Positions 6,587 through 23,678 of a DNA stretch of 49,248 bases are shown one piece after another (positions within the stretch are counted from its first letter, which is position 1; each line of letters begins with the position of its first letter). Location: contig JAQWWC010000080.1 of the NCBI GenBank assembly GCA_029249645.1, positions 1-49,248 of the forward strand. Direction: 5' to 3'. This DNA comes from Pseudomonadales bacterium. Its GTDB lineage: Bacteria > Pseudomonadota > Gammaproteobacteria > Pseudomonadales > Azotimanducaceae. Position numbers and translations under genes: made by a program. The notes below the pieces were generated by a model. It was not told the origin of the DNA. It was given only the letters and a program-made list of their open reading frames with translations, and did no database searches.

Positions 6587-6622
6587 AACCGTGTTGACCC
6601 GCTTCTTGAAGACACCCGTGTT

Positions 6623-8818
6623 ATGAACGCGCACTTTGTATCGTCAGCACTGATCTTTTGCAGTCTCTTTTTGAGCTTGAGTTTAAGCGCAAGCGGGCCG
6701 TCTTCAGCTGCAACCCTAGATCGACCAAAGATTGGCCTAGTGTTGGCGGGTGGAGGGGCTCGAGGCGCGGCTCACATCGGCGTTTTGAAGTATCTCGAGG
6801 ATCATCGCATTCCCGTGGATCTTGTCACGGGTACCAGTATCGGCGCCATTATCGGCGGTTTATATGCCTCAGGGTTGTCTGCGCGAGAAATTGAAACCTT
6901 AATGCTTGAGATGGATTGGGAGCAAGCGCTGGTTGATGACGTGCCCAGACAAGATCGCTCTATGAAGCGTAAGTTTCGAGAAGACCAGTTTTCGATTCCC
7001 GGGACGCCTGGCTATCAAGGCGGCGTATTGAAAATACCCAGTGGCGCGATCCAAGGCCAAAATGTCATTTTAGCCCTGCAGGCGATGACCCAGCATGTCG
7101 CCCACGTCATCGATTTTGATGCCTTACCGCGGCCTTTTAAGGCGGTCGCCACCGATATTGTGACCGGTGAAATGGTGGTGTTGGATAAAGGTAATTTAGC
7201 CGTCGCGCTTAGGGCCTCGATGGGCGTACCCGCAGTTTTCGCGCCGATCGAAGTCGATGGCAGGTTACTCGTCGATGGCGGCATTACCAACAACCTTCCT
7301 GTTGAACTGGCCCAGGCAATGGGCGCTGACGTACTGATTGTCGTCGACATCACCTCACCAATGTTGCCAAAGGCGGCGTTGGGTAATTTGCTGACTATCA
7401 CAGACCAACTCACGAGACTGCTTGTTGTGAACAACACGCAAGTCCAGAAGGCGCGGCTCACCGCAGACGACATCCTAGTCGTGCCCGATCTTGAGGACTT
7501 TTCTGCGGTGGACTTCAGCACCGCGGCGGGCGCGATCAAGATCGGTGAAGAAACAATCGCAGCAAAACGGCAGGCGCTTAGACCGTTCATGCAAAGCCAG
7601 GAGGCCTACGTCTCGGTCACAAAACCGACTGCCCGAAGGCCAACCGTTGCGGGCATTGACTTAGTGAACGAATCGGGTCTTGCCAACACGGTATTAAGCA
7701 AAAGGATCTTTACCAAAGTAGGGGATCGATTCAATTTGAAACAGGTAGCACGCGACGTAAACCGCATTCATGGCCTAGGTCACTTCGAGCTCGTTTCGTT
7801 TACCCAAACGCAAAAAGCAGATCAGACCGCTTTAGCCATCAGCGCCGACAAAAAGGCCTGGGGGCCCAATTATCTACATTTTGGGTTTAACCTAGAGAGC
7901 GAGTTTAAGCACGACTCAAGAGTTTCATTCTTGCTGGGTTATTCTCAGCAGGAAGTGTCTCGCTATGGGGCAGAGTGGCTAACGAGCGCAAGTATTGGCG
8001 ATGAACCCAGCCTTGAAAGTTCCCTGTACTGGCCCTTGGATCCAGCTGGCAACATGTTTGGCTATTTGACGGGCGGTTATTCTGATCGGGCACTTTATGA
8101 TTATGAAAACGAGGTCAGAACCACGGTTTATGCTTTACGTGGGTTGGAAGTGACTGCCGGTATCGGCTTTGAGTATCAGGGCCAATGGCGAACCACAGTC
8201 GGGCTTCGCCGCACCGAAGGGCGGGCCCATGCCGTAAGCGGCCTGAGTCAGCGAACCAACTTAGGGTTTGATGAGTCGAGTTTGGAATGGCGTTTTGTAT
8301 TTGATACTCGGGATGATATTGATTTCCCAGCGCATGGGGCGATTATCGATGCCAGCTGGTCGCTTTATCATGAGGCCTTGGGGAGTGAGAATCGATATGG
8401 GCAATGGACACTCCGTGCCGGACGTTACTTCGAAAAAAATGAGCACAATCTCGGCATCAATTTATATCTTGGTGCGGCGACTGATGCCCCCAGTATTAAT
8501 TCAGAGTTTCAGATTGGCGGCTACGGCCTGCTTACTGGCTTGAGCACCCAAGCCCGACGCGGGGCGGCCATGGGCGTCTTATCGGCCATTTATTATCAGC
8601 GCTATAACGCTTTGCCGGCGCTTGATGGCCTGATCGGCGTCACAATGGAATATGGCGGCGCCTGGGATAACACTGACGACGTGTCTGCTGTCGACGCACT
8701 TGGGTCACTCGGCGCCTTTGTTGGAGCTGATACGCCCTTGGGAACATTACAAATTGGCTTTGCCATCGCAGAGGGCGGTCATCGGAACTACTATACAAGA
8801 CTTGGGCGGGTCTTTTAG
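6623..8818 (+). CDS. Patatin-like phospholipase with C-terminal Omp85/BamA-type beta-barrel (PlpD-like type Vd autotransporter)
   Basis: Signal peptide. Patatin motifs are GGGARGAAHIGV (oxyanion hole), GTSIG (GxSxG nucleophile) and VDGGITNNLP (catalytic Asp). The roughly 400-aa C-terminal region is aromatic/Gly-rich and ends in ...YTRLGRVF, as expected for an outer-membrane barrel. Confidence 0.85.
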   Translation: MNAHFVSSALIFCSLFLSLSLSASGPSSAATLDRPKIGLVLAGGGARGAAHIGVLKYLEDHRIPVDLVTGTSIGAIIGGLYASGLSAREIETLMLEMDWEQALVDDVPRQDRSMKRKFREDQFSIPGTPGYQGGVLKIPSGAIQGQNVILALQAMTQHVAHVIDFDALPRPFKAVATDIVTGEMVVLDKGNLAVALRASMGVPAVFAPIEVDGRLLVDGGITNNLPVELAQAMGADVLIVVDITSPMLPKAALGNLLTITDQLTRLLVVNNTQVQKARLTADDILVVPDLEDFSAVDFSTAAGAIKIGEETIAAKRQALRPFMQSQEAYVSVTKPTARRPTVAGIDLVNESGLANTVLSKRIFTKVGDRFNLKQVARDVNRIHGLGHFELVSFTQTQKADQTALAISADKKAWGPNYLHFGFNLESEFKHDSRVSFLLGYSQQEVSRYGAEWLTSASIGDEPSLESSLYWPLDPAGNMFGYLTGGYSDRALYDYENEVRTTVYALRGLEVTAGIGFEYQGQWRTTVGLRRTEGRAHAVSGLSQRTNLGFDESSLEWRFVFDTRDDIDFPAHGAIIDASWSLYHEALGSENRYGQWTLRAGRYFEKNEHNLGINLYLGAATDAPSINSEFQIGGYGLLTGLSTQARRGAAMGVLSAIYYQRYNALPALDGLIGVTMEYGGAWDNTDDVSAVDALGSLGAFVGADTPLGTLQIGFAIAEGGHRNYYTRLGRVF

Positions 8819-8991
8819 CGGCGATACCACACGCCTTGTCCAGTGACGCGAGCCGTCAAGGCGCAATCTCCTCCCGCGATCAGAGGACGGGGCGGGCACG
8901 CCAAATCATGATGCAACTTGGTTTGGGCCGGGCGCCGAAACAAAGGGTGCCGGACGTCAACCATCTTCACCAGCAGCGCGACGGCGTCGAC

Positions 8992-9525
8992 TCATTCAGC
9001 CCGTTTGGGTATCTGCAAACGAATTAGGTTAGCAACCAAATCGGCTCCGGCAGTACGCACCGAGACAGATTTATCTATGGAAACAATGATACCTGACGCA
9101 TCAATATAGAAGGTCCATCGTTTGGCAAACGCGCCCGCCATTAAAACGCCATAGTCTCGCGTCATCTTTTTATCCGGATCAGCAAGAATCGGAAAGCTTG
9201 CATCGTTCTTGGTTGCAAATGCCGTGTTATCGGCTAAAGAATCCGTGCTTGCCATGAAATAGGCAACCTCGAAAGCTTGAATGGCCTCATCACTGTCACG
9301 CAGCGATTTGCACTCAAGCGTTCAGCCGCCGGTAAAGGCTTTCGGGAAAAATGCAATGACGACCGCTTGTCGACCCTTAAATTGACTCAATGTGTAGGTC
9401 TTACCGTCCGATGCAGTCAGCGAAAAATCCGGGGCATGATCCCCAATGTTCAGCCCTTGGGCTGTGGCTGCGTTGTATCCCAGACCGAAAGCCAGACACA
9501 GACAGCAAATAAAATACCCTTTCAT
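8992..9525 (-). CDS. Exported AhpC/TSA (BCP/peroxiredoxin-like) selenoprotein. The in-frame UGA at 9322-9324 is read as selenocysteine.
   Basis: ORFs 9322..9525 and 8992..9255 are in the same frame (534 nt, 178 codons), separated only by a TGA. The joined product reads ...[41 protein letters not shown]...[18 protein letters not shown]...[14 protein letters not shown] therefore occupies the peroxidatic Cys position of the Prx motif (FxPxxFTxxC), with a resolving Cys at +4. The N-terminus looks like a signal peptide ([24 protein letters not shown]). GGAG lies 9 nt before the ATG. selA and selB are in the same window. Confidence 0.75.
9275..9319 (-). promoter_or_regulatory. Candidate bacterial SECIS stem-loop directly 3' of the recoded UGA
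   Basis: The mRNA after the UGA is A-C-GCUUGAG-UGCAA-AUCGCUG-CGUGA-CAGUGAU-GAGGCCA-UUCAAGC. The outer stem pairs GCUUGA with UCAAGC. The 7-bp upper stem pairs AUCGCUG with CAGUGAU (one G-U pair). The 5-nt apical loop CGUGA contains GU and starts about 21 nt after the UGA, within the usual bacterial SECIS distance. Confidence 0.5.
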
Positions 9526-9543
9526 GATAATGCTCCGATAAAC

Positions 9544-10413
9544 CTAAGGCGCCGAGCGGGTCGTCAACATGACCTGATCCTCTGCGAATTCATTGACTCG
9601 GGAGATGACCTGATTGCCCCCTTGCGTTGAATCAAGCGGCCGCGCGATGACCTTGATCCCTCGTGTTTTTTTAGCGATATCTTGGGCTTGTACTTGGAGT
9701 ACTGGTCCGAGATTATTCGTGTCGATATCGCCTAGAGGCGCGGTGCTGGCGTAAACCGATACCGTTTCTTGGCCGAACGGTCCCTGTACCACCATGTCGA
9801 ATTTATCAAGGCCGCCCGGCACTTCGTAATTCACGCCCCCTTGGAAATAGGCATCTTGCCGGTAGGGATTGGGTAGTAACTGAAGCTTTAAACCAGTCGC
9901 ATCCTGGTAAATGATCCTGCCAAAAAATGGCTTGTTACCACGCAAATAGATCTTAAGTGCTTCATTCTCGACCAGCTCGGCTTTGTTCGTCCAAATCCGA
10001 ACCGTGAGTGGGGCACTCGGGTCGTCCTGAAACCCTCCTGCTTCTGATATTTTCTTGAGATCCTGCGCAACGGGAATAACTTCTGCTTGAATTCTAACGG
10101 TGTAACAATCGCTAGACGTTGGGTCGTCCCACTGCTGCTCGATAATCGTGAGCACTTGGACTTCCGCCTGAGCGAAAGCTTTTACGAGATCTCGCTTTAA
10201 ATTAAAGTTTTCCATTTCGGTGGTGCTTTCGATATAGCTTTTTGAAAACTCAACCGCTTGGCGCTTAGCGTCCTGAAGCGCTAACTGTTCGGTCTGTTTT
10301 TTAGAGTAATCGACCCCCATGCAGGAATAGCCCTCTGCTTCGGTGATCGAAGATTGTTGAGCGTTAACCGATAGCGCGCAAACCGCTAAAACAGCGAGCA
10401 GATAATATTTCAT
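9544..10413 (-). CDS. Secreted hypothetical protein. The N-terminal region is LPP20/FlgP-like. The C-terminal region resembles DUF4384.
   Basis: Signal peptide MKYYLLAVLAVCALSVNAQQ, taking the ATG at 10413 (the longest ORF uses a TTG at 10431). The C-terminal half (LTVRIWTNKAELVENEALKIYLRGNKPFFGRIIYQDATGLKLQLLPNPY) matches my recollection of the DUF4384 pattern. No enzymatic motif is visible. Confidence 0.65.
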   Translation of the reverse strand: MKYYLLAVLAVCALSVNAQQSSITEAEGYSCMGVDYSKKQTEQLALQDAKRQAVEFSKSYIESTTEMENFNLKRDLVKAFAQAEVQVLTIIEQQWDDPTSSDCYTVRIQAEVIPVAQDLKKISEAGGFQDDPSAPLTVRIWTNKAELVENEALKIYLRGNKPFFGRIIYQDATGLKLQLLPNPYRQDAYFQGGVNYEVPGGLDKFDMVVQGPFGQETVSVYASTAPLGDIDTNNLGPVLQVQAQDIAKKTRGIKVIARPLDSTQGGNQVISRVNEFAEDQVMLTTRSAP

Positions 10414-10431
10414 GCAATAAGATTCCAACAA

Positions 10432-11409
10432 TTAAAGAACAATAATAACGCCCGCATCCTGCATGACGCCATCCTGAATCATTTTTTCTAAGCGGCGAGA
10501 GCCTTCAGAATTGAGAACTATTTCAGTGCGAGTGTCGCCCCAAGTTCGTAACGCTTTTAAAACAACCGGACGATCGCCAACGATCGGGTGCTGCTGGGCC
10601 GTTGTAACATCCCGAGTAAACAGCGAAACGAGCTGACCTCTAGCAGCAAGGGTTTGCTGGTCGCTCATTTTAGGATAAATCACACCGGCTCGTAATTTTC
10701 TAATTTTGGGTGACATCGAGGGAATAAAATTACTCCCGCGCGCATCGATCACAATGCCCGTTGGCATTCCGCGGACCGCTTTAGGTAATCCTTTTTGATC
10801 AGTTATCAACGCTTCCAAGTTATCGAGCCGGCGTGTGAGTGTCTCAAGCGCTGTCTCGAGGCTGGATTCGTTCGCGTGGGCGGGCCTTGCAATCGCGCTC
10901 AGCACATAATCCAAGGATGAAAACATCGCCTTTTGAACGGCCGACTCCGTCGGGCCAGAGGATTGGTTATTGGGCGCAAGCACCGTTGAATAAACATCAC
11001 GTGCAAAATTGCCAGCAATCGGAGCCGTTAACGTCACTTCGCAGGTGCCATCGGCTTGGGGGCGTCGACTGGTCATCACTGCGCCTTTTAAAGAGCCCTC
11101 GACGCTGGATTTAATTAGATCACTTTCCAACATGAGTTTATCGACGATTGTAATCCCTTCAACGCGAACGCCCTGCAGAGACTCAAGCAAATTCCTCTGG
11201 GCATCAACCAAGGCGGCCCGACACGACATCATTTTGGCAAGACTCGGTGGTGTTCCAGGTTTGGCGAGCCCAGCACCCTCAGCAACCGCTGAGCCATTGG
11301 TCCAGTTTACCCCGCTGTTGGCCGCGACCCATTCAATGTAATCGTCGGCGCGGCTGACCTCTGCCGCAAAAACACCGAAGGCAATAACTATGATTCGTAG
11401 ATACATCAT
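10432..11409 (-). CDS. Secreted hypothetical protein with an LPP20-like N-terminal domain and an uncharacterised C-terminal domain
   Basis: 325 aa with a signal peptide (MMYLRIIVIAFGVFAAEVSRAD). The block AEGAGLAKPG...MSCRAALVDAQRNLLESLQGVRVEG is typical of LPP20-type lipoprotein folds. I could not assign the C-terminal GIVIDARGSNFIPSMSPKI... domain. The stop abuts the next ORF. Confidence 0.65.
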   Translation of the reverse strand: MMYLRIIVIAFGVFAAEVSRADDYIEWVAANSGVNWTNGSAVAEGAGLAKPGTPPSLAKMMSCRAALVDAQRNLLESLQGVRVEGITIVDKLMLESDLIKSSVEGSLKGAVMTSRRPQADGTCEVTLTAPIAGNFARDVYSTVLAPNNQSSGPTESAVQKAMFSSLDYVLSAIARPAHANESSLETALETLTRRLDNLEALITDQKGLPKAVRGMPTGIVIDARGSNFIPSMSPKIRKLRAGVIYPKMSDQQTLAARGQLVSLFTRDVTTAQQHPIVGDRPVVLKALRTWGDTRTEIVLNSEGSRRLEKMIQDGVMQDAGVIIVL

Positions 11410-11430
11410 GCTGATCTCATTTTTTTCGGT

Positions 11431-13323
11431 TTAGTCTTCCATGGGGCCCAAAATCGTCATCATTGAGGCCGGTGGATCGAACTTATTACCTGTCACTTTG
11501 ATGGCATAACTCGAGCTGTTCTGAATATGAAAGGGTTGGTTCTCGGTAAACTGATTACCCGATAGGCTAGGCTGCGCCTGTTCGGACAACACCATGGCCG
11601 AAGCGGAGGCATTTGTGAACGCATTGTTTCGAATCAATGGTTTTGAACTGCCAGACATCATAATGGCATTAAACGCGCCATTAACGACTGTGTCCTCTAT
11701 AATCGGGCTACCTGCCAGGATTTGGAACGGTACATTGACGTGCTGGATGCTCATACCCGCCACTCGGCTTGGTAACATCGACCTAAAGATCAAAAACGTT
11801 TGGGCCGAGACGCCTTGTTGATGCGTAACCGTAATCGGCGCAGCGGTCGTTCCCATCGCTTGAATTTCCCCCAGCACATCAATTTGCGCATTTGGTGCAA
11901 GTTCGAGTTGGACCCCCGGCTCAATCAACAAAACGCCATCAGTTGCAATACGCAGAGGGCCGGATAGGGTAAACGGACCGAAAGCCTTGCGCAGCCGCAT
12001 CGCACCTTGCACGACGGATGGTAGGGCGGACTTGACATCCTTGGCTTGGCTAAAACGCGGATCTGGCGCCGCGATCACGGTCATTTTTTGCGGTGCAGCC
12101 TGATTGCCAGCATCATCCTCCAGCATGATCTGAATTTGCGTCGGGGCAAAATCAGACAGGTCGGTGACGGTGAGGGCTTGGTTGATGGGCGCCACGCGCT
12201 GCCAAGTATCACGCCCTCGGACCCGTACAGAAACCGTTTCTAAATCGCCATCGTAGTCCGGTGACCAGGAAATTTGTACGGCGCCTGGGCGAGACGTAAT
12301 AGTGACGTCGGTCAACGCTGTCGGTGGTGTGTTATCAATCGTCATGAGGCCGTACGGCGAGACCCAGGAACTGAACTCGCCGGCATCATTCATTAGTCGG
12401 CCAACGACGCTTTCGGATTCGATATTAATCGATTGGTCGACGATCCATTGACCCGAATAGGCGCCCGAGCTGACCTCTTGAAGATCAATTAAACCGACGC
12501 CTTGAATGGCGATGCTTGCCTTCAATCCAGCATCTCCCTCGAGTGCAAAATTTACGGTCGCGCCATAGTTTAGCTTTTGGCTGGCACCGGAATGCGCAAC
12601 GCTTTGAATAACAGGGCGGTTTTTGGCCGCTAAACGCTCTGGTGCGGGCATTTCTTTGGCCAAAACTCGGCCCAAGTCATCGGCGGCACGGAACAAATTG
12701 ATGTCCCCGTACAGGTGTTTCGCCGCCGCAAGCGCGTTAACAATGATGCCCACCGGTGAGACCGAGACACCCCCTGCATAGGACCGCTGAACATTCGACG
12801 CCTCCCAAACAATTTCATCTTGGTCATTAAGCAATGTCAAACTCACGCCGACAGAAATGCGTGCCCCGACACCCGCAAAAGTCTTCTCGTAATGGGTGAC
12901 GTTGCCGGTGATCAGTCCATCAACCCCAAGAATTGTGCGCAATTTCGAGAAATCAAGGTCAGGCGCTGCGGCGGTATCAATGCCTGCTAAGGCCAGGCGG
13001 CGATCGACATCAGCCGTATGCATGACGCGATAGTTTCGGCTTGAAAAATGGTTCGACAAGGTTTGTCGAACCGCACCAATCGCCAGATCACTCGTTGTTT
13101 GGTTGCCTAAGGGCAGAACTGCAATCGTTGTGGGCAACGTTTTTTCATCGCTGGGAACTTCTGTCTCCGTCGTCTTCGACGTGCCAAGCGTCATAGCGGG
13201 ACCCGCCAAAATGCCTTCGTCGGTCTGCACGGCGCACCCACTCAAAAAGGCACCAACCGCAAGGGTGACGAACGCTAACGGTCGCGTGCGGCCCAAAAAT
13301 AGTCTGAAACGTTCGGATATCAT
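11431..13323 (-). CDS. Large modular lipoprotein: DUF799/LpoB-like N-terminal module, Ig/FN3-like middle, and a right-handed beta-helix (PbH1-like) C-terminus
   Basis: Lipobox LSGC at residues 27-30. The N-terminal module is IAVLPLGNQTTSDLAIGAVRQTLSNHFSSRNYRV. The middle section (TPPTALTDVTITSRPGAVQISWSP) is Ig/FN3-like. The C-terminus has repetitive N/G/S-rich strands (VVNGAFNAIMMSGSSKPLIRNNAFTNASASAMVLSEQAQPSLSGNQFTEN), typical of parallel beta-helix repeats. AGGAG SD. Confidence 0.7.
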   Translation of the reverse strand: MISERFRLFLGRTRPLAFVTLAVGAFLSGCAVQTDEGILAGPAMTLGTSKTTETEVPSDEKTLPTTIAVLPLGNQTTSDLAIGAVRQTLSNHFSSRNYRVMHTADVDRRLALAGIDTAAAPDLDFSKLRTILGVDGLITGNVTHYEKTFAGVGARISVGVSLTLLNDQDEIVWEASNVQRSYAGGVSVSPVGIIVNALAAAKHLYGDINLFRAADDLGRVLAKEMPAPERLAAKNRPVIQSVAHSGASQKLNYGATVNFALEGDAGLKASIAIQGVGLIDLQEVSSGAYSGQWIVDQSINIESESVVGRLMNDAGEFSSWVSPYGLMTIDNTPPTALTDVTITSRPGAVQISWSPDYDGDLETVSVRVRGRDTWQRVAPINQALTVTDLSDFAPTQIQIMLEDDAGNQAAPQKMTVIAAPDPRFSQAKDVKSALPSVVQGAMRLRKAFGPFTLSGPLRIATDGVLLIEPGVQLELAPNAQIDVLGEIQAMGTTAAPITVTHQQGVSAQTFLIFRSMLPSRVAGMSIQHVNVPFQILAGSPIIEDTVVNGAFNAIMMSGSSKPLIRNNAFTNASASAMVLSEQAQPSLSGNQFTENQPFHIQNSSSYAIKVTGNKFDPPASMMTILGPMED

Positions 13324-13335
13324 ATGTAGCTACTC

Positions 13336-14295
13336 CTAATCGTTATTATTCGATGACTCGGATTCAAGGGGTTGCGTTTTCTTACGGCCACCAAATAACC
13401 AAGATCGGTTTAGGGTTTGGGACAACGTATCCAGGCTCTTCAAGGTTGCATCAGTTGTTTTCATCAATTCGGGCAGTTGCTCTATAGCCGGCTCACCTGA
13501 CTGCAGGAGAACATCTGTTTGTTTTAAGGTTTGGGTTGCCTGATCCGTTAGCAACGCAGCGTTGGCAATGGCGGTGGCGATATCATCGCTCGAGCCTGCC
13601 ACAACATTATCGACGCGGCTTATGGTGCGATCCAACTGCGCCAAACTTTGGCTGACCGACGTAAACACGGCCGGCAGGTCTTGCGAAACACGTTTTAACT
13701 CAGTGGTTACTTCTGCAAGGTTATCCATCGTGCTATACAGGGTTTCTTGGTTATTAGCCAAGCCACCCGCTATAGACTCAACCGACGTAACAATTGTGGT
13801 GATTTGCTGGGTTAACTGCTCGAAATCAAGTGTTTCCAGCAAGGAGGCCAGGCCTTGGGGTGGTTCCGCTTCTATGTAAGCCCCGTCAATAAGAGGCCGG
13901 CCCGTTGAGGCGCCTGGTTGTAGCAGCAGGCCGCTGCCATTCAAAATAGAATTCACGCCAATCTCACTGTCGATCACCAGTTTGAGGTCTGATGTATAAA
14001 ACTGCGCGTAATTGTCGGACAAAGCGAATTCAACTCGGACCGAGCCATCGTTGCTCAGAACCACACTCTGCACAGATCCAACGTTCACCCCTTTGAGCGA
14101 AACGATGGCATTGGGAGTGATCCCATAAGTTTGATCCAGGCGCGTGTAAAAATTAAGGGTGTCTTCATCGGCGAGATCGCGCACCATCGGAATGATGAAT
14201 CCCAGTAAAAAAATGCACAGCGAGCCAATCACAAAGAAGCCAACTATTCGGTCTTTGTTGCTTACAGCAAAGGGGCGATAGGCGGAAGCGGTCAA
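13336..14295 (-). CDS. MlaD/MCE-domain protein with a long C-terminal helical extension
   Basis: N-terminal TM helix, then an MCE domain (VSLKGVNVGSVQSVVLSNDGSVRVEFAL). About 170 aa of heptad-like, Q/T/L/S-rich sequence follow. The TTG start overlaps the upstream stop (TTGA). Confidence 0.8.
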   Translation of the reverse strand: MTASAYRPFAVSNKDRIVGFFVIGSLCIFLLGFIIPMVRDLADEDTLNFYTRLDQTYGITPNAIVSLKGVNVGSVQSVVLSNDGSVRVEFALSDNYAQFYTSDLKLVIDSEIGVNSILNGSGLLLQPGASTGRPLIDGAYIEAEPPQGLASLLETLDFEQLTQQITTIVTSVESIAGGLANNQETLYSTMDNLAEVTTELKRVSQDLPAVFTSVSQSLAQLDRTISRVDNVVAGSSDDIATAIANAALLTDQATQTLKQTDVLLQSGEPAIEQLPELMKTTDATLKSLDTLSQTLNRSWLFGGRKKTQPLESESSNNND

Positions 14296-14957
14296 ACTGA
14301 GCTCTCAACCAATTGATTCGCCTTTATTTTTAACACTTGATCCACCTCACGTAAAACATGTTCATTTGAAGACGTCAGCAAGACCGTCATATTCTCCTTC
14401 CGCGCTTTGTCTTTTAGCAACTCCATGGTGCTATCAATCATGTCGTCAGGCATGCCGCCCTCGAGTTCGTCGATCAGTAACAACTCAGGCGACATCACCA
14501 GCGCGCGCGCTAGATTAACCAGGCGGGTTTGGACATCGTTAAGTTCATGGGGCTGCATCCAAACAAGTGTGTTGGGCACATTAAGCGCCTCAATGGTCGT
14601 ATCAATCAATGATCGAGTCTGGTCAAAAGTTAAATCGGTATGAAATTCAAGGGGTAATGCAATGTTTTGAAATACATCATAAAGACTAATTAAACCTTCA
14701 TCTTCATATACAAAGCCAACCTTGCGCGCGCGTTCGCTCGCAGGCATCGTTAAGATATCGCGACCGTTCAAAATTGAACGTCCGTCAATATCAGAAAGCA
14801 TCCCGCCAATGCCTTTTAACAAGGATGTCGCACCATCCAAGACGTCGGTTTCAATCCCGATCAAACTGCCAGCAGGAAACTGAAGGTTGAGTCGATCGAA
14901 GAGTAAGACCTCTGGGTATTCGATGTGGAGGTTCTCGAGAACCAACGAGCCGGTCAT
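14292..14957 (-). CDS. MlaF-like ABC nucleotide-binding-domain homolog with degenerate catalytic motifs (predicted pseudo-ATPase)
   Basis: The ABC NBD layout is recognisable: VGFVYEDEGLISLYDVFQNIALPL in the Q-loop region, and LLLIDE as Walker B. Walker A is IETDVLDGATS instead of GxxGxGK[ST]. The signature is LNDVQ instead of LSGGx. The H-loop region is LTSSNEH. Both gene junctions are ATGA/TTGA overlaps. Confidence 0.75.
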   Translation of the reverse strand: MTGSLVLENLHIEYPEVLLFDRLNLQFPAGSLIGIETDVLDGATSLLKGIGGMLSDIDGRSILNGRDILTMPASERARKVGFVYEDEGLISLYDVFQNIALPLEFHTDLTFDQTRSLIDTTIEALNVPNTLVWMQPHELNDVQTRLVNLARALVMSPELLLIDELEGGMPDDMIDSTMELLKDKARKENMTVLLTSSNEHVLREVDQVLKIKANQLVESSV

Positions 14958-15841
14958 TGGGTGTAGGCCAAAACAGATAACAGGATATTGATCACGAAGA
15001 ACACCATGAGCTGCGTTGTGGTCGAGTTCGATATAGCGTCCGAGACTTCGGTAAAACTGCTTTCCACTTTTGCGCCAAAATGGATTGAGATGACCCCAAT
15101 CATCATACCGCCAAGCACTGCCTTTAAACCGTTGATCGCGATTTCGTTGAGACTGATTTGATTAAGGATGGCTGATAGCAAGGCGAAAAAATCTGCGTCT
15201 GGGTTTGACAGCCAAATCATGGCGTAGCTGGAAAGAAAAACTACGAGATCAAAATAGATAAACATTAAAAGCAAGGAGAGCGGGAAGGCAAAAAAAACGG
15301 GAAGTAAAAACAAAAATACCGGACTGATGCCCAACCCATTGAGCACCTGAAATTCACGACGCAACCTAAGATAGCCAATTTCCGCTGTGATCGCGGTCGC
15401 GGAACGCGCGATTAGGATCACGCCTGAGATCAACGGCCCTAGCTCTCGAAATACGATCACCATAAACAAATAACCAAATTGGTCTTCCATGACCTGATTG
15501 GGAATATAATCAAACAACCTCGAAATAATGAGGGTGCCAACCAAAATCCCGATCGCGCCATTGATGTAGAGCGCCCGAACGCCGGTGTTGTAGATCTGCC
15601 GGTAAAACAACGCCATAAAGATACCACGACGTTTTTTTTCAAATAACAATTTGCTGGCCGCAAGCGCAACAGAAATCAGGCCAATCAAATCCATGACCGT
15701 TCTGGTCAACTGCGCTACCGGGTTTACCAGCATTTTGAGCGGACCAAGTACGGTAAACCGATTGGGCACGTCGTAATCAACCGACTCGACCCTCATTGGC
15801 TCATTAGACTTTTGCTTTGGAAGATCGTCAGCCAGGTTCAT
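14954..15841 (-). CDS. MlaE-family ABC permease-like protein
   Basis: 295 aa and polytopic. It has the MlaE-type pattern (FYRQIYNTGVRALYINGAIGILVGTLI ... REFQVLNGLGISP). The stop overlaps the NBD start codon (ATGA). Confidence 0.8.
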   Translation of the reverse strand: MNLADDLPKQKSNEPMRVESVDYDVPNRFTVLGPLKMLVNPVAQLTRTVMDLIGLISVALAASKLLFEKKRRGIFMALFYRQIYNTGVRALYINGAIGILVGTLIISRLFDYIPNQVMEDQFGYLFMVIVFRELGPLISGVILIARSATAITAEIGYLRLRREFQVLNGLGISPVFLFLLPVFFAFPLSLLLMFIYFDLVVFLSSYAMIWLSNPDADFFALLSAILNQISLNEIAINGLKAVLGGMMIGVISIHFGAKVESSFTEVSDAISNSTTTQLMVFFVINILLSVLAYTQ

Positions 15842-15927
15842 ACTGGGAGGGCCAATGTCCGCGTGACATCAAATTGCGCTGTTCTGGCGAGCACTGGCTT
15901 CATCTCGCAGGCCCTATGCAGGTTGCA

Positions 15928-16926
15928 TTACACACGCGCCAACATCCTGTCGTGCTCTCGGCGCAGTATTCTCAAAAGGGTGGGCAAACGTTCCTCGGTC
16001 ATGACATGCGCCTCGAAAATGGCTTTAACCTCTTCATAGGGCCGCTTTCGCAATAACAGCCTGAAGTTGTGCCGTAACGGCTTAAAGTCCTCTTGGTCTA
16101 ACAAGCGTTCAACCGCATCGGCAAAATCATCGTAGTTGCCCGCATCAAAAGCTTTGCGGGCTCGCAGCAAGCGAAACCGCATACTCAAGGGGGACAGGAG
16201 TGAGTTCAACAGAAATGCTGTGAACAGCGCCAAGAACGTCACAATGAAGTCACCCACTTTATCTTTGGCAATGCGAATCCACTCAGCGAGCGCTGTACTG
16301 GTTTGTGCCTCAAGAGTCGTTCTGATTTCGGTTACATAAGATTTTGCGACAGGGTTCAGCGGATCGATCTGAAGTGCCCGCATAAATTCAGATTCCGCCG
16401 CCTGAAGCGCATTCATTTTATAAAGCGCTTCTCCCTTGAGCGTATAAAAATCCGCTTGTCGGTCTGGGAACGCCACAAGCGCTAAGTCGGTAACCGCAAT
16501 CGCTGTTGCGAAATCTTTAAGCTCGATCCGCTTTTGGGCGAAAATAATGGCCCGTTTTTCACTGCTCACGATGCGCTTAAACGCTCGCCGGACTTGCACA
16601 CCTAACTCAGCCACATCTGACCGAGTCTTGGCTAACCCTTCGATTAGGTTTTCAGCTTCACTGAGTCGATCGCTTCCAAGCAATAATTGAACCTCTAGTG
16701 CGACTAACCGCGGGTGGTTGTCAAAATTATCTCGTTCAGTTTGCAGCAGTTTAATAGCGCCTCGAGTCTGATTTTGGCTTTGGAGCCTGGCAGCATCCTC
16801 TAAGACCTTCGCGACAGGCCCAGGTAACGCCGATGACGCTATTACGGATTCATTATTTTCGGCAGCAACGGACGAACACACAGTGATGAGGGTCACGAGA
16901 ATCATGGAAGATAAGTAATTTGTCAT
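15928..16926 (-). CDS. TPR-like repeat membrane protein (signal/anchor, periplasmic helical repeats, one TM, cytoplasmic tail)
   Basis: N-terminal hydrophobic segment, then helical-repeat sequence (DFYTLKGEALYKMNALQAAESEFMRALQIDPLNPVA). A TM helix FIVTFLALFTAFLLNSLL lies near residue 230. AAGGTG SD. This is the first gene of the minus-strand cluster. Confidence 0.7.
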   Translation of the reverse strand: MTNYLSSMILVTLITVCSSVAAENNESVIASSALPGPVAKVLEDAARLQSQNQTRGAIKLLQTERDNFDNHPRLVALEVQLLLGSDRLSEAENLIEGLAKTRSDVAELGVQVRRAFKRIVSSEKRAIIFAQKRIELKDFATAIAVTDLALVAFPDRQADFYTLKGEALYKMNALQAAESEFMRALQIDPLNPVAKSYVTEIRTTLEAQTSTALAEWIRIAKDKVGDFIVTFLALFTAFLLNSLLSPLSMRFRLLRARKAFDAGNYDDFADAVERLLDQEDFKPLRHNFRLLLRKRPYEEVKAIFEAHVMTEERLPTLLRILRREHDRMLARV

Positions 16927-16992
16927 AACGCGAGCACCTTTATCCGATCTTAGTCGTCACGCGAAGGCTGTGTACGGTCGTTACTGGACCAG

Positions 16993-17028
16993 TCTCAAAT
17001 CGTTTCAATCATTTCAATCGTTTCAATC
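16993..17028. repeat. Direct 9-bp repeats (N-TTTCAATC x3 plus one degenerate copy) between selB and the TPR gene
   Basis: The sequence reads tctcaaatc gtttcaatc atttcaatc gtttcaatc. On the minus (transcribed) strand the unit is GATTGAAA(C/T). It lies about 70-100 nt upstream of the TPR-gene ATG. Confidence 0.7.
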
Positions 17029-17161
17029 GATTGCCTAGAGTGGTTCAAAAGCAGATTAAAATTATCAACTTAACGAACTTTATAGCATCTCCACCGCGGC
17101 AAAAACACCCTGATCAAAGACGTCCATATTCTCTGTACCGAATCATGCCCGCCAGCCGCAC

Positions 17162-19036
17162 CTACCGCCTCGGATGTCGTAGGTTACCGTCCCGACGGGT
17201 AAGTCCTTTCTGATCAAAATACTCTAACAGTTCGATACAGAGGTTTCGGCCCATCCCCGAAGCATCACGATACTGTTGGACCGTAAACGGGCGTCCGCTG
17301 GCTACCGATTGCGTTAACGAAATTAAGTCCGCGATGGTTTTTGGCTCAAAAAACCGGTTTTTAACCGGATGCACCAATAAGCCCGCTTTGGCACAAGCCT
17401 GCAAATGCTGATTCAACTGTTTGGGATCGACATTAAGCTTTGCTGCGAGGTCATGCAGTACGGGCGGTTGTTTTGGATTCTCAGAAATAAGAGGGATGAC
17501 CTGCTCTAAAAGTCTTCGGGTTTGCTCAGGTAAGGTTGCCTGCGCCCCGGGTCGATGCAACAGTGACCCGGATTGTAAGATCACGCCTTCTACTTTGAGC
17601 TGTGTAATAATCGCGTCGCGATAGAGACAGGCTTTGGGTATCAACGCTAGGAGTTTCGGGTAATCCATTCCCTGAAGCGTGGGATGGTTTTGATGCCAGT
17701 CTTCAAGTGCTTTAACCAATCTGCTTTTCGCATCCGAAAAGTCTACCTGCGAGACCAAAATGCCATTCACATCACTAAGGGTCGAATGGTCCTTCAAAAA
17801 AGCAGTGATGCGCTCAGGCTTCCAATTCAGAATGCGCTCAACGGTTTCAACTGCCACACCGTGACCGGTACCGACAACGAGTCGCAACAGATAATCGGCA
17901 TCGCTAGTTGCCTCGGAAAGTTTGGCTAAAAGCGCAACACGCTCGGGTTTTGCACGGCCGCGGCTTTGCGCGAGTGGGTTGAGCACAAAACCGCTGGCAA
18001 TGGTTCGGGTCGCGCCTTGATCTCGAAAGATGAGCCGGTCGCCATAACACAAAGAGAGTGGCGCGCTCGTCACCAATTGCACGATACCCGACGTCCCAGG
18101 TTTGATTTCAGGCCCGTTCAAGGTCGCAAGGTGCCCTAGGGTGTGTTGTGCCGCATGGTGCACATGAACCGAGGTCCAATGACGGATGGACTTGTTTTCC
18201 GCGGGTAAAGTCTGCAGCACAATGTCGCAATGACGCTGCGCGGTCATTCTTGGGTTGGCCGTTAACCAGTCGCCCCGCGCCAGTTCATTTAAGGCGGCTT
18301 GTTGACCGGTCAAATTCAAGGCTGCACGATCTCCGGCGCTGGCCGATGGACTTACAACGTTCTGCCGATGCAACCCCCGAACCTTGAATGATTGCGACTG
18401 GTTCGGAGCAGATAGTGTGTCGGATAAACCAATTTTGCCAGTGAGGATGGCGCCGGTGACCACAGTGCCTGCTCCTTTGATAGAGAAGCTTCTATCAATC
18501 GCCATCCGAAAATGACCAGCGTCAGACCGATGCTGCATCCTTTGTGCATGGGCCTTTAGCGCTGTGATTAATTCGGCTTTACCGATTCGGCTAACGTTTG
18601 AACAGGGAATCACCTGGCTTTGCTCGAACGACGTCCCGTGCAGTTGCTGGACAATTGTAGACTTGACCTCGAGACAACGCGCGGGTTCAACCCGATCAAC
18701 TTTTGTCATAGCAACCAGCAGGGCAGGGACCCGCAGGGCTTCGAGAATGGCCAGGTGCTCGAGTGTTTGGGGCATCATGCCATCGTCGGCGGCAACCACC
18801 AGCAGCGCTAGGTCCACTGCTCCAACCCCCGCCAACATATTGTTAATAAATTTGATATGACCCGGAACATCTACAAAACCGACCGACAGATCGTCTATTT
18901 GCGAATAGGCAAACCCTAAATCTATCGTGAGCCCACGATCTTGTTCCTCTTGAAGCTGATCGGTTTGGATACCCGTTAGCATTTCGACAAGACTTGTTTT
19001 CCCGTGATCAACGTGGCCGGCGGTTGCAACTATCAT
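17162..19036 (-). CDS. selB: Selenocysteine-specific translation elongation factor SelB
   Basis: 624 aa. The N-terminal GTPase has MIVATAGHVDHGKTSL and DVPGH. The long C-terminal winged-helix region that binds SECIS is present. There is a 4-nt overlap with selA. Confidence 0.9.
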   Translation of the reverse strand: MIVATAGHVDHGKTSLVEMLTGIQTDQLQEEQDRGLTIDLGFAYSQIDDLSVGFVDVPGHIKFINNMLAGVGAVDLALLVVAADDGMMPQTLEHLAILEALRVPALLVAMTKVDRVEPARCLEVKSTIVQQLHGTSFEQSQVIPCSNVSRIGKAELITALKAHAQRMQHRSDAGHFRMAIDRSFSIKGAGTVVTGAILTGKIGLSDTLSAPNQSQSFKVRGLHRQNVVSPSASAGDRAALNLTGQQAALNELARGDWLTANPRMTAQRHCDIVLQTLPAENKSIRHWTSVHVHHAAQHTLGHLATLNGPEIKPGTSGIVQLVTSAPLSLCYGDRLIFRDQGATRTIASGFVLNPLAQSRGRAKPERVALLAKLSEATSDADYLLRLVVGTGHGVAVETVERILNWKPERITAFLKDHSTLSDVNGILVSQVDFSDAKSRLVKALEDWHQNHPTLQGMDYPKLLALIPKACLYRDAIITQLKVEGVILQSGSLLHRPGAQATLPEQTRRLLEQVIPLISENPKQPPVLHDLAAKLNVDPKQLNQHLQACAKAGLLVHPVKNRFFEPKTIADLISLTQSVASGRPFTVQQYRDASGMGRNLCIELLEYFDQKGLTRRDGNLRHPRR

Positions 19037-20427
19037 CCAGCTATAACCGCTTCGAGCCCAGCCAAAAGCGGTTCTGGTTGATACAGGGTGCGCAGGTCCA
19101 GCAGCAACCTAGACCCCGTTATGCGACCTAAAATTGGTATATCGACCTGTCGAAGGCGCGTGGCGAGACTCATAATCGCTTCGTTGGGGTGTGTCGTGCC
19201 CTGGGCGCTGATTGCGATCGCCCAGCTCGGCAACAAGTCAATGGGTAGGGCGCCGCTGCCAATCTGGCTTTTAGCGCTGACCAGCGCGGCGTCAAAATCG
19301 TTTCCTAAGTGCGCTGTAACCGCTGGCAGCAGCGTCTCGCCAAACTGTTTTATCGCCGCTTCGGACCTGGCTAGGTCTCGCAAGGTGGGTAGATGTTCTA
19401 CCAAGCTTTCTGGGGTTAGATACAGCTTTAAAACGGCGATCAAGGCGGCCAAGGTCATCTTATCGACCCGAAGGGCTCGCTTCATGGGGTTTTGTTTGAT
19501 CAGAGCGATGGCCTTAGCCGTACCGACTATTAATCCAGCTTGAGGGCCGCCTAATAGTTTATCCCCGCTAAAGGTAACAATGTCGGCGCCACTTTGAACC
19601 GCTTCTTGCACCGTTGGCTCTGGCGGCAAGCCGTATTGGCTAAGATTTAACAAGGTCCCGCTGCCGAGATCGGTCATAAAGGGCAGATCAAATTCGTGGG
19701 CAAGGGCAGCCAAGTCACTTTCGGCGACGCTTTCGGTAAACCCTTGAATTTGATAATTGCTGGTATGGACTTTCATCAGCATGGCAGTCTGATCGGTTAT
19801 CGCCGACTTGAAGTCCGACAGGCGCGTTCGGTTGGTAGCTCCCACTTCGACTAGACGACATCCTGAACGCGTCATAATCTCCGGCACGCGAAAGGATCCG
19901 CCGATTTCAACCAATTCGCCTCTCGACACAGGGACATCTCGGCCCAGGGCGAAGGTGTTGAGAACCAACATAACCGCCGCCGCATTATTGTTCACAACGG
20001 TAGCCGCTTCCGCGCCGGTGATTTCCTTCAAAAGGTGCTCAAGGGGTAGGTCTCGATCGCCGCGCTTTCCGGTTTCCAAATCGAACTCTAGGTTACTTGG
20101 GCTGCCTGCGACACGTTGCACCGCATCGAGTGCTACCTGCGGCAAGCTGGCACGGCCTAGGTTAGTGTGAAGAATCGTTCCGGTTAGGTTTAGCACCGTC
20201 TTTAAAGTTGGATTGGTAGCACTAAGCACTGATCTGATGTTGGCAAGTAACGCGTCATCCGACGGCAGTTCGAGTTCAGTAGTTGCGATATCGCGTCTCG
20301 CCGTTGCAAGCGTCTCGGCAATGACCCGAGCGACACGAGTTCGACCAAACTCATCGACTAGAATGCGGCCCGCTGCCGAGCATAATAACTGATCGACTCC
20401 GGGTAAGTGTTTAGCAGATTGCGACAA
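19033..20427 (-). CDS. selA: L-seryl-tRNA(Sec) selenium transferase SelA
   Basis: 464 aa. It has the typical SelA N-terminus (LPGVDQLL) and the PLP-lysine block FSGDKLLGGPQAG. Confidence 0.9.
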   Translation of the reverse strand: MSQSAKHLPGVDQLLCSAAGRILVDEFGRTRVARVIAETLATARRDIATTELELPSDDALLANIRSVLSATNPTLKTVLNLTGTILHTNLGRASLPQVALDAVQRVAGSPSNLEFDLETGKRGDRDLPLEHLLKEITGAEAATVVNNNAAAVMLVLNTFALGRDVPVSRGELVEIGGSFRVPEIMTRSGCRLVEVGATNRTRLSDFKSAITDQTAMLMKVHTSNYQIQGFTESVAESDLAALAHEFDLPFMTDLGSGTLLNLSQYGLPPEPTVQEAVQSGADIVTFSGDKLLGGPQAGLIVGTAKAIALIKQNPMKRALRVDKMTLAALIAVLKLYLTPESLVEHLPTLRDLARSEAAIKQFGETLLPAVTAHLGNDFDAALVSAKSQIGSGALPIDLLPSWAIAISAQGTTHPNEAIMSLATRLRQVDIPILGRITGSRLLLDLRTLYQPEPLLAGLEAVIAG

Positions 20428-20430
20428 GGA

Positions 20431-22689: not shown

Positions 22690-23678
22690 TCTCTGAGTAA
22701 TTCCGATAGGATCTGTTGGCTCATCTGCGGAAACACACCTAACAATCCACCCGTGTGGAGAAACACAACATCCGTGCCTTCGATATCGCCGTGTTGGATC
22801 ATTTGAACCAGCCCCTGAAACGCTTTACCGGTATAAACGGGATCCAAAATTATACCTTCTAGTTGCGCAAGCCAAGCAATCAATCGATACACCTCCGGGG
22901 AGGTCAGGCCATAGCCTTCGCCGATAAAATCATCGCGCAGCAGTCCCAGCTCTGGATTAAGACTCGATTGAAAACGCTTTTGCCAGCGGGCGGTATCCGT
23001 TGCTGCTTTGCGCTCAAAGAATGCGGCATTACGGGAAACGCAGACGCCAATAACAGGTAGTGTCAGGTTGTAAAGCGCCTGGCCTAACAATAATCCAGCA
23101 TAGGTGCCGCCAGAACCAACCGCGGTCACAATACAACTGGGTTGAATGCGCGCGGATGCAAAATCGGTGGCTAGTTCTTTAACTGCTTGAATGTAACCCC
23201 AGAGACCGAGTTCATCGCTTGCACCGAGTGGAATCTGGTATGGTCGCTCCCCAGAAGCGCTGAGCTGCGCTGCTTTGCGTACGTAGAGCGCATCGAGTTG
23301 CTCGAAGGCCTGATCGCTCACATAATCGATGTTGGCGCCTAACAAGTGATTAAGCAGCAGGTTGCCATTGGCGGTGCTGGCTTCAGCGCCCCGTAAAATC
23401 AAATGGCACTGCAATCCGAGCTGCGCGGCAAACAAAGCCGTTGCCCGGCAATGATTCGATTGTAAGCCGCCACTGGTGATCAGGGCGGTTGCTCCCTGGT
23501 TAAGAGCATCCGCCAGCACAAACTCGAGCTTTCTGATTTTGTTACCCGCGCCTGCGGCCTCGGTTAGATCATCTCTTTTAATCCAAATTCGTGGCCCACC
23601 AAGGGCTTCGGACAGCCGGTCAAGGGGCTGCAGCGGGGTGGGCAGCCTCGCAAGGTCGAGTTTAGGCGGTGGGTTCAT
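22686..23678 (-). CDS. PLP-dependent ACC deaminase/D-cysteine desulfhydrase family protein
   Basis: Contains LPTPLQPL...IWIKRDDL...GNKIRKLEF (PLP-Lys motif). The 330-aa length is typical of the DcyD/ACC deaminase family. Confidence 0.85.
   Translation of the reverse strand: MNPPPKLDLARLPTPLQPLDRLSEALGGPRIWIKRDDLTEAAGAGNKIRKLEFVLADALNQGATALITSGGLQSNHCRATALFAAQLGLQCHLILRGAEASTANGNLLLNHLLGANIDYVSDQAFEQLDALYVRKAAQLSASGERPYQIPLGASDELGLWGYIQAVKELATDFASARIQPSCIVTAVGSGGTYAGLLLGQALYNLTLPVIGVCVSRNAAFFERKAATDTARWQKRFQSSLNPELGLLRDDFIGEGYGLTSPEVYRLIAWLAQLEGIILDPVYTGKAFQGLVQMIQHGDIEGTDVVFLHTGGLLGVFPQMSQQILSELLRE

Follow-up and report, generated by a model that had tools for sequence, protein, structure and literature searches.

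A predicted exported selenocysteine-containing peroxiredoxin encoded across an in-frame UGA in a Pseudomonadales genome

The peroxiredoxin family listed as 'Prx, pfam00578, TxxU' contributed 253 selenocysteine (Sec) sequences from 34 samples to the Global Ocean Sampling (GOS) selenoproteome (Zhang and Gladyshev 2008, PMC2398784), and Prx (TxxU) is placed among the established selenoproteins in a 2026 review, where the Sec-containing peroxiredoxin PrxU (Soehling et al. 2001) is cited under the non-predicted entries. Export is known from PprX (CC1673) of Caulobacter crescentus, a PrxQ-type peroxiredoxin reduced by TlpA and ScsB (PMC3322552). Here we describe a gene, below called prx, in which a Sec codon is found together with a predicted export signal. 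It lies in a stretch of 49,248 nucleotides (contig JAQWWC010000080.1 of assembly GCA_029249645.1, a Pseudomonadales bacterium of the Azotimanducaceae), called the window, to which coordinates refer unless another locus is named. We consider, with a probability of about 0.88, that positions 9525..8992 of the minus strand constitute one gene for an exported Sec-containing peroxiredoxin.

The prx gene and its homologs

Translated in a single frame, the minus strand from 9525 to 8992 gives 177 codons interrupted by one internal stop, the TGA at 9324..9322 in the context GG-stop-TLEC. In the list of open reading frames (ORFs) the same region appears as a 67-aa ORF (9525..9322, ending FFPKAFTGG) and an 87-aa ORF (9255..8992, starting MASTD), both on the minus strand. 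A preliminary description of this DNA, made from the sequence alone, had joined the two in frame across the TGA into a 177-aa protein of the AhpC/TSA type, leaving the strand implicit. The analysis confirms this, as the TGA is the only internal stop and the joined protein, with Cys substituted for the stop in profile matching, is recognized by Pfam AhpC-TSA (PF00578; 2.5e-30, 105.4 bits against a gathering cut-off of 26, residues 27-148) and by Redoxin (3.5e-22). The complete selenoprotein gene (8992..9525, minus strand) has 177 sense codons, the Sec codon included, encodes the precursor of an AhpC/TSA (BCP/AhpE-like) peroxiredoxin, and is closed by a true stop TGA at 8994..8992 (minus strand), in the position of codon 178. 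A Shine-Dalgarno-like GGAG, read from the sequence at 9533..9536 of the same strand, is situated 7 nt 5' of the ATG (9525..9523), and the preceding gene ends with a TAG (9546..9544) 18 nt before this ATG. A six-frame scan of the window for further genes split by TGA yielded 38 candidates, all of which, except prx, are off-frame shadows or gene junctions.

A search of a collection of 5.8 billion proteins returned 5558 matches, the top ones being full length and 50-67% identical to the prx product. In an alignment of 24 homologs with the window protein, the stop column falls within the PxxxTxxC signature (P61, T65, position 68) and is occupied by Cys in most homologs; the columns of P61, T65, C72, and R136 are invariant in the 25 sequences. 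The codon at 9322..9324 (minus strand), residue 68, is accordingly the predicted Sec codon UGA in the peroxidatic position of the motif PxxxTxxU (P61..T65..U68). Six of the closest homologs (P0001-P0004, P0009, and P0011, from the metagenome contigs L001-L003) are stored with Trp in column 68, and the codon on their contigs is TGA. One genome per species was then considered, using the Genome Taxonomy Database (GTDB), and 80 loci with a relative were found, of which 53 have TGA and 27 have TGC or TGT at codon 68; TGA orthologs are also present on the metagenome contigs L001-L003. Among the homologs compared at this column, none has a frameshift or a different stop. The placement of the UGA at the peroxidatic Cys position, proposed in the preliminary description, is borne out, as homologs with Cys align exactly in the U column. 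The Cys/Sec pair (27 against 53 loci) and the UGA orthologs elsewhere are among the features by which a bacterial selenoprotein of the 'Prx (TxxU)' kind is recognized.

Hosts of the TGA form are mostly marine Gammaproteobacteria and metagenome-assembled genomes of Pseudomonadales (OM182, Azotimanducaceae, and K189A among them), and two are from Vicinamibacterales. The closest relatives of the window gene are three loci with 94%, 87%, and 83% identity (L004-L006, respectively). In a midpoint-rooted neighbor-joining tree, constructed without support values, two groups of Cys forms (L033 and L064/L066/L070/L072/L073) are nested within the large Sec clade, which suggests that Sec-to-Cys replacements occurred within it. 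In the same tree, the Sec peroxiredoxin of a 4.6-kb contig (L018, CAXPUI010000463.1) assigned to 'Candidatus Fonsibacter ubiquis', an alphaproteobacterium of freshwater belonging to SAR11, clusters with L028. Its gene is of the gammaproteobacterial type and carries the same hairpin as described below, and the taxonomic bin is probably a binning error.

The AlphaFold2 model built on the 25-sequence alignment has a pLDDT of 90.4 and a pTM of 0.83, with low confidence only at residues 1-21. In a fold search of the Protein Data Bank all of the top 50 matches are peroxiredoxins (E-values to 1.8e-15), the best being Bcp1 (3drn), AhpE (1xvw/4x1u), BcpB (5epf), and PrxQ with target-normalized TM-scores of about 0.8-0.85, and a sequence search of solved structures returned Bcp1 3drn (1.4e-16) and AhpE 1xvw (2.4e-15). 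The catalytic residues of peroxiredoxins, PxxxTxxC and an Arg, are all present as P61, T65, U68, and R136; the latter (codon 9118..9120, minus strand) is the conserved catalytic Arg, in the context RWTFYID, and occupies an invariant column. In the model U68 is followed by the helix 70-77, which includes Cys72 (codon 9310..9312, minus strand; U-T-L-E-C), invariant in the alignment and a candidate resolving cysteine.

None of the NCBIfam equivalog cut-offs is reached by the prx product. The BCP/PrxQ equivalogs were rejected at 78.4 bits against 140 for NF006960 (E. coli BCP) and at 58.8 bits against 260 for NF053650 (Deinococcus PrxQ), and the second Cys is found at +4 (U-T-L-E-C), not in the C-x4-C spacing of BCP/PrxQ. 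Membership in PrxU (NF040737) was rejected at 44.8 bits against a cut-off of 270, and membership in Prx-SUH at 25 bits against 298; Prx-SUH needs a CxxU motif, and the motifs here are TxxU and UxxxC. On sequence grounds, the protein belongs to a distinct BCP/AhpE-like subfamily, nearest to BCP/PrxQ, with an invariant second Cys four residues past the peroxidatic residue.

The proximity of U and C in the sequence resembles a redox motif, and the protein might instead be an envelope thiol/selenol-disulfide oxidoreductase of the TlpA/ResA kind, using its U-x3-C pair on protein substrates and not acting as a peroxidase. There are weak NCBIfam matches to ResA (38.5 bits), to a SelL-related redox protein, and to WAxxUGC proteins, and in the window lineage the gene adjoins an envelope lipoprotein and Mla-like genes. 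The ResA, SelL-related, and WAxxUGC matches are all far below their cut-offs, the Mla-like neighborhood is not conserved, PxxxTxxU and the catalytic Arg are invariant, and the best neighbors by both sequence and fold are the true peroxidases Bcp1, AhpE, BcpB, and PrxQ. We regard an oxidoreductase function as quite improbable and treat the prx product as a peroxiredoxin below.

The hairpin downstream of the UGA and Sec decoding

The RNA immediately following the UGA forms a candidate selenocysteine insertion sequence (SECIS). The fold of 9324..9270 (55 nt from the UGA) has an energy of -23.5 kcal/mol (z = -4.5), and none of 200 shuffled sequences was as stable. Its core is a hairpin at 9289..9307 (minus strand), with a stem of 7 bp in the window, of which 5 bp are found in all orthologs, and a 5-nt loop CGUGA (9300..9296) that begins exactly 21 nt past the UGA. 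An extended lower stem (9271..9323, minus strand) belongs to the window's own fold and, beyond the window, occurs in its nearest relatives only. In the bSECIS model (Zhang and Gladyshev 2005, as summarized in PMC13188914), the loop has 3-9 nt with a G in its first two positions, usually followed by G or U, the stem has 4-16 bp, the distance from UGA to loop is 16-37 nt, and the minimum free energy (MFE) is at most -7.5 kcal/mol. The window hairpin falls within each of these ranges, with a 5-nt loop, a 7-bp stem, G then U at loop positions 2-3, and a spacing of 21 nt; folded in full it has an MFE of -23.5 kcal/mol, and the core by itself one of -7.6 kcal/mol.

The short hairpin that distinguishes Sec forms from Cys forms reads ..C-G-C-U-G [CGUGA] C-A-G-Y-G.., and it was compared across 45 distinct Sec-form segments aligned without gaps. 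Of the five core pairs, four are retained in 44 or 45 segments, and 41 segments retain the G-U/G-C pair (columns 21:33). The loop-closing pair is G-C in 37 orthologs and C-G in eight and is never unpaired, a compensatory change, and the outer pair (columns 18:36) is G-C in 19, A-U in 12, and G-U in four. Unguided RNAalifold gives the same five pairs. The lower stem is poorly retained, with 58.6% of cells paired over the 45 orthologs.

Synonymous sites within the hairpin are frozen in the Sec forms: Arg is encoded by CGU in 45 of 45 segments, a codon used for only 18% of Arg in the genes of the window, Leu by CUG or CUC, Asp by GAC, and Ser always by AGY. In six Cys-form relatives with the same L-R-D peptide, Arg is encoded by CGC or CGG, and Asp by GAU in five of the six. 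Since these codons are frozen in the Sec forms and not in the Cys forms, the constraint is one on the RNA and is confined to genes with UGA at this codon. Each of the 56 TGA loci has a single copy of the composite pattern UGAAC..CUS-CGUGNS-AG, which is absent from all 27 Cys loci, and its 11-nt core CTSCGTGASAG has one occurrence in the window against 0.04 expected by chance. This DNA pattern could serve as a simple and specific detector for genes of Sec peroxiredoxins. The proposal of a bacterial SECIS in the preliminary description therefore stands as far as the hairpin and its 21-nt spacing are concerned, these being found in all TGA orthologs and in no Cys ortholog, but it has to be narrowed to the upper 5-7 bp, as the long lower stem is not conserved.

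The Cys forms nested in the Sec clade (L033, L064, L066, L070, L072, and L073) have kept the L-R-D peptide, and the frozen hairpin codons are gone from them. By sequence comparison, this pattern would fit a secondary replacement of Sec by Cys, after which the SECIS decayed.

Two genes of the Sec decoding machinery are present in the window on the minus strand: selA (19033..20427), encoding L-seryl-tRNA(Sec) selenium transferase (TIGR00474, 563.7 bits against a cut-off of 267.9), and selB (17162..19036), encoding the Sec-specific SECIS-binding elongation factor (TIGR00475, 378.5 bits against 242.25) with Pfam SelB beta-barrel and winged-helix domains. Both are intact and score above the NCBIfam equivalog cut-offs, in agreement with the earlier statement that selA and selB are located about 8 kb from prx. 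ARAGORN found no tRNA-Sec in the 49-kb window or in the 83 loci fetched with their flanks, and Rfam at the gathering threshold found none in the window. The selC gene is reported to be embedded in or located beside selB in some Gammaproteobacteria (2026 review), and a permissive Rfam scan (E <= 10) of 16500-20600 gave only noise. A tblastn search with an approximate E. coli SelD probe detected no selD in the window or flanks.

We suggest that a ribosome arriving at the UGA 9324..9322 would be served by SelB-GTP with Sec-tRNA(Sec) bound to the hairpin, which starts 14 nt further on, so that Sec would be inserted as residue 68. At the real stop UGA, 330 nt downstream and without a hairpin, termination would proceed normally. 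Within the prx gene UGA has two opposite meanings, Sec at codon 68, with a hairpin on its 3' side, and stop at codon 178, where there is none.

Six of the closest database proteins are stored with W at the site, which might point to decoding of the UGA as a standard amino acid, either Trp or Gly by an altered code or by near-cognate read-through. We give this explanation practically no chance. TGA is the stop codon of 15 of the 41 genes in the window, including prx itself, which excludes a reassigned genetic code. Further, catalysis would be lost with Trp or Gly in the peroxidatic position, every homolog without TGA has Cys there, and the Sec factors selA and selB are located 8 kb away in the window and adjoin the gene in relatives.

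It is also very improbable that prx is a dead Cys-type peroxiredoxin, disrupted by a nonsense mutation or an assembly error producing the TGA, with the two ORFs as its remnants. In its favor, gene callers split the gene into 67-aa and 87-aa fragments in public collections, and neither selC nor selD is visible in the window. But TGA occupies the same codon in 53 of the 80 species-level loci, as well as on independent metagenome contigs, both halves remain in frame and are conserved down to about 50% identity with invariant catalytic residues, the RNA hairpin strictly co-occurs with the TGA, and neither selA nor selB is damaged. The TGA, the two halves of the protein, and the hairpin are all conserved, which excludes a pseudogene.

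The database records illustrate how the Sec reading of prx has been missed. Two wrong forms are stored, either the full-length protein with Trp, that is, the TGA read under another code, or the 67-aa and 87-aa fragments; the exact fragments of the window occur as separate public proteins (P0121-P0141), some of them named 'peroxiredoxin Q/BCP'. The risk of mis-annotation raised in the preliminary description is thus real and systematic. Because the gene is mis-called and its product reaches no NCBIfam cut-off, automated pipelines will keep missing a selenoprotein of dozens of marine species.

Export signal, proposed mechanism, and genomic neighborhood

The prx product has an extension of 26 aa ahead of the Pfam domain, arranged as MK, a hydrophobic core, and YNAATA followed by QG. 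By a heuristic for n-, h-, and c-regions, a Sec-type signal peptide is predicted at residues 1-22 (9460..9525, minus strand), with cleavage before QG. By the same kind of heuristic, 107 of 114 homologs carry a corresponding extension; a hydrophobic core is seen in 97%, K/R in 95%, and a site of the small-x-small type in 95%. The earlier remark that the N-terminus looks like a Sec signal peptide agrees with this family-wide pattern, and we infer that export is a trait of the whole subfamily, of Cys and Sec forms alike. The same description called exported selenoproteins uncommon in bacteria. Uncommon they are, but documented cases weaken the point: the 2026 review lists SaoB, an ABC-transporter substrate-binding selenoprotein, and a 2026 paper presents a multiheme cytochrome c selenoprotein. 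Predicted export of the prx product is thus notable and not unprecedented.

An alternative is that the protein is not soluble in the periplasm, either because the N-terminus is an uncleaved anchor that tethers it to the inner membrane facing the periplasm, or because the start is mis-called and the enzyme is cytoplasmic. Export is judged here by heuristics, and the h-region is rather long and rich in Cys and Phe. On the other hand, the extension ends with A-T-A before Q, a small-x-small site, and the cleavable n-, h-, and c-pattern is found in the 107 of 114 homologs; the GGAG is positioned 7 nt before the ATG, and the Prx domain begins only at residue 27. An anchor or a mis-called start therefore seems unlikely, with some weight left to it, and a soluble periplasmic Sec peroxiredoxin is the preferred interpretation.

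According to the mechanism that we propose, the 22-residue signal would export the protein, and the mature form of about 155 aa would work in the periplasm. U68, at the start of helix alpha-2 and activated by T65 and R136, would attack H2O2 or an organic hydroperoxide and be converted to a selenenic acid. C72, one helical turn away, most likely resolves the selenenic acid, giving an intramolecular selenenylsulfide, which might then be reduced by a thioredoxin-fold reductase of the envelope, by analogy with Caulobacter PprX, TlpA, and ScsB.

Several observations weigh against this interpretation as a whole or in part. A complete Sec machinery in the genome is assumed from selA and selB, since selC and selD were not found in the window or flanks. 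The conserved part of the hairpin is short, 5 bp, and the isolated core is weaker than -7.5 kcal/mol in 17 of 45 orthologs. Over the 58 nt after the codon, the mean fold energy is not lower in Sec forms (-12.8 kcal/mol) than in Cys forms (-16.5 kcal/mol). Thermodynamic stability was dropped as a criterion for the SECIS, since the Cys forms are no less stably folded in this 58-nt stretch, and the case for the SECIS rests on conservation and covariation instead. The predicted export comes from heuristics, and the N-terminus could serve as a membrane anchor that is not cleaved. That C72 is the resolving residue is a guess, because U-x3-C differs from the C-x4-C of classical BCP/PrxQ, and no gene for an envelope reductant (TlpA, ScsB, or DsbD) is present in the window.

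Upstream of prx on the same strand, the gene order is a TPR protein, MlaE, an ABC ATPase, MlaD/MCE, a GNA1162-like beta-helix lipoprotein, an unknown 325-aa protein, and DUF4384/FlgT_N. These seven genes form an envelope block (9544-16926, minus strand), in which MlaE is an MlaE-like permease and the GNA1162-like lipoprotein has 630 aa. Between the DUF4384/FlgT_N gene and prx there is no promoter-like or terminator-like site, so co-transcription of prx with the Mla-like block is plausible from the sequence. The preliminary description had presented prx as the terminal gene of a Mla-like operon. It is indeed located downstream of the block in the window, but the block stands beside prx only in the window and four relatives (L004, L005, L007, and L016), and linkage to selAB is wider. 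On this distribution the Mla-like operon was rejected as the functional context of prx.

In 12 of the 45 Sec-form loci with enough upstream flank, selB is on the same strand and its end is separated from the Sec codon downstream by less than 2 kb; this applies to none of 20 Cys-form loci. If L005 and L007 are added, in which this distance, as in the window, amounts to 7.8 kb, selB linkage is found in 14 of 45 Sec loci, again against 0 of 20 Cys loci. As linkage recurs among Sec loci and is absent from Cys loci, the proximity of selAB (8 kb) in the window is no coincidence. In some genomes prx directly follows selB; in locus L010, for example, selA occupies 6596-7999, selB 7996-9888, and prx starts at 9947. 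Only in the window, L005, and L007 are selB and prx separated by the envelope block, of which L004 and L016 show a part. Judging by gene order, the Mla-like block separates selB and prx in the window lineage, either by insertion here or by loss elsewhere.

The selA-selB-prx arrangement, together with the export signal, suggests that peroxide defense in the envelope may account for some of the selenium that marine heterotrophs require. More tentatively, and with less than even confidence, selA-selB-prxU may be a co-inherited module of abundant marine Pseudomonadales-like Gammaproteobacteria, with the exported Sec peroxiredoxin as the main or perhaps the sole client keeping Sec decoding. If such a module exists, a periplasmic selenoenzyme would defend these bacteria against external peroxides, and the near-invariant SECIS (CUG-CGUGA-CAG) and the repeated nested Sec-to-Cys replacements would record gain and loss of the module.

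The order of a pyridoxal phosphate (PLP) enzyme of the D-cysteine-desulfhydrase family, selA, selB, and prx(U) recurs in 12 marine gammaproteobacterial genomes (for instance, L010 4925-10465); the stretch from the PLP enzyme to selB in the window is 17162-23678 (minus strand). The PLP enzyme of the window is encoded at 22686-23678 on the minus strand (TIGR01275, 312.9 against a cut-off of 289.4). An enzyme of this kind beside selA might be a source of selenide, or its substrates might be Se/S amino acids. Between the PLP gene and selA is a 752-aa ORF (20431-22689, minus strand), for which no match was found in Pfam, NCBIfam, or the fetched relatives. A lipobox (LAGC) is located close to its N-terminus, the long middle part is of low complexity and rich in Ala, Thr, Ser, Glu, and Pro, and the C-terminus by eye looks SPOR-like.

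Other genes of the window are listed for completeness. The gene convergent with prx (6623-8818, plus strand) encodes a 731-aa protein with an N-terminal patatin-like phospholipase and a C-terminal Omp85-type barrel, resembling PlpD-like type Vd autotransporters. A 955-aa ORF (46059-48926, plus strand) is a fusion of two consecutive lipid A steps, a complete MsbA lipid A flippase (TIGR02203, 690.9 bits) and the LpxK tetraacyldisaccharide 4'-kinase (TIGR00682, 218.1 bits). A cation-efflux gene (40534-41460) and an ORF similar to alanine racemase N-terminal domains and D-serine dehydratases (41384-42622), both on the plus strand, overlap by 77 nt as listed, and the latter gene probably has a later start codon.

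Comparison with known systems

Dataset S1 of the GOS study contains at least 21 reads with the identical motif PKAFTGGU, for example JCVI_READ_1711844, listed as Sec-containing Prx (PMC2398784). The subfamily has therefore been on record as a selenoprotein since 2008 under 'Prx, TxxU', as the preliminary description had anticipated in stating that the family is not new. The likeness to the 'Prx TxxU' family of the GOS and Sargasso Sea extends to the Pfam domain, the TxxU position of Sec, and the marine origin. The GOS catalogue consists of read fragments, and a search of its text showed no genome context, selA-selB linkage, or account of this SECIS, whereas the window offers the full gene in context. 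Neither that text nor the 2026 review mentions a signal peptide or the periplasm, and a term search of the review found selAB linkage nowhere described.

PrxU of Eubacterium acidaminophilum, a cytoplasmic enzyme of an anaerobic Firmicute, is likewise a peroxiredoxin in which Sec takes the peroxidatic position. It belongs to another Prx subfamily, and its model (NF040737) has 233 positions against the 177-aa precursor described here.

With respect to the proteins of the fold, S. solfataricus Bcp1 (3drn) and M. tuberculosis AhpE (1xvw) are the closest solved structures by sequence and fold (TM-score 0.82-0.84), and AhpE shares the context FFPLAFTG-x-C with the prx product. Identity is 28-32%, both are cytoplasmic Cys enzymes, AhpE is of the 1-Cys type, and in classical BCP the second Cys is at +5, against +4 here.

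The hairpin resembles the SECIS elements of E. coli fdhF and fdnG and the bSECIS model in its location within the coding region just 3' of the UGA and in its small apical loop with G then U near the 5' side. It differs from the E. coli elements in its unrelated sequence, in a conserved part of 5-7 bp with a 5-nt loop, and in that no bulged U is predicted.

For location and recycling, we consider Caulobacter PprX the best functional analogue. It is BCP/PrxQ-like, has a signal sequence of about 20 aa, and is active in the cell envelope against H2O2 and organic peroxides (PMC3322552). The difference is that PprX uses Cys, not Sec. Set against these systems, prx belongs to a family that is already known, and the annotation and biology points made here do not alter knowledge of selenoproteins in kind. 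They are modest additions: the strict association of TGA and hairpin with a compensatory pair, the selA-selB-prx linkage, the predicted family-wide export signal, and a DNA search pattern.

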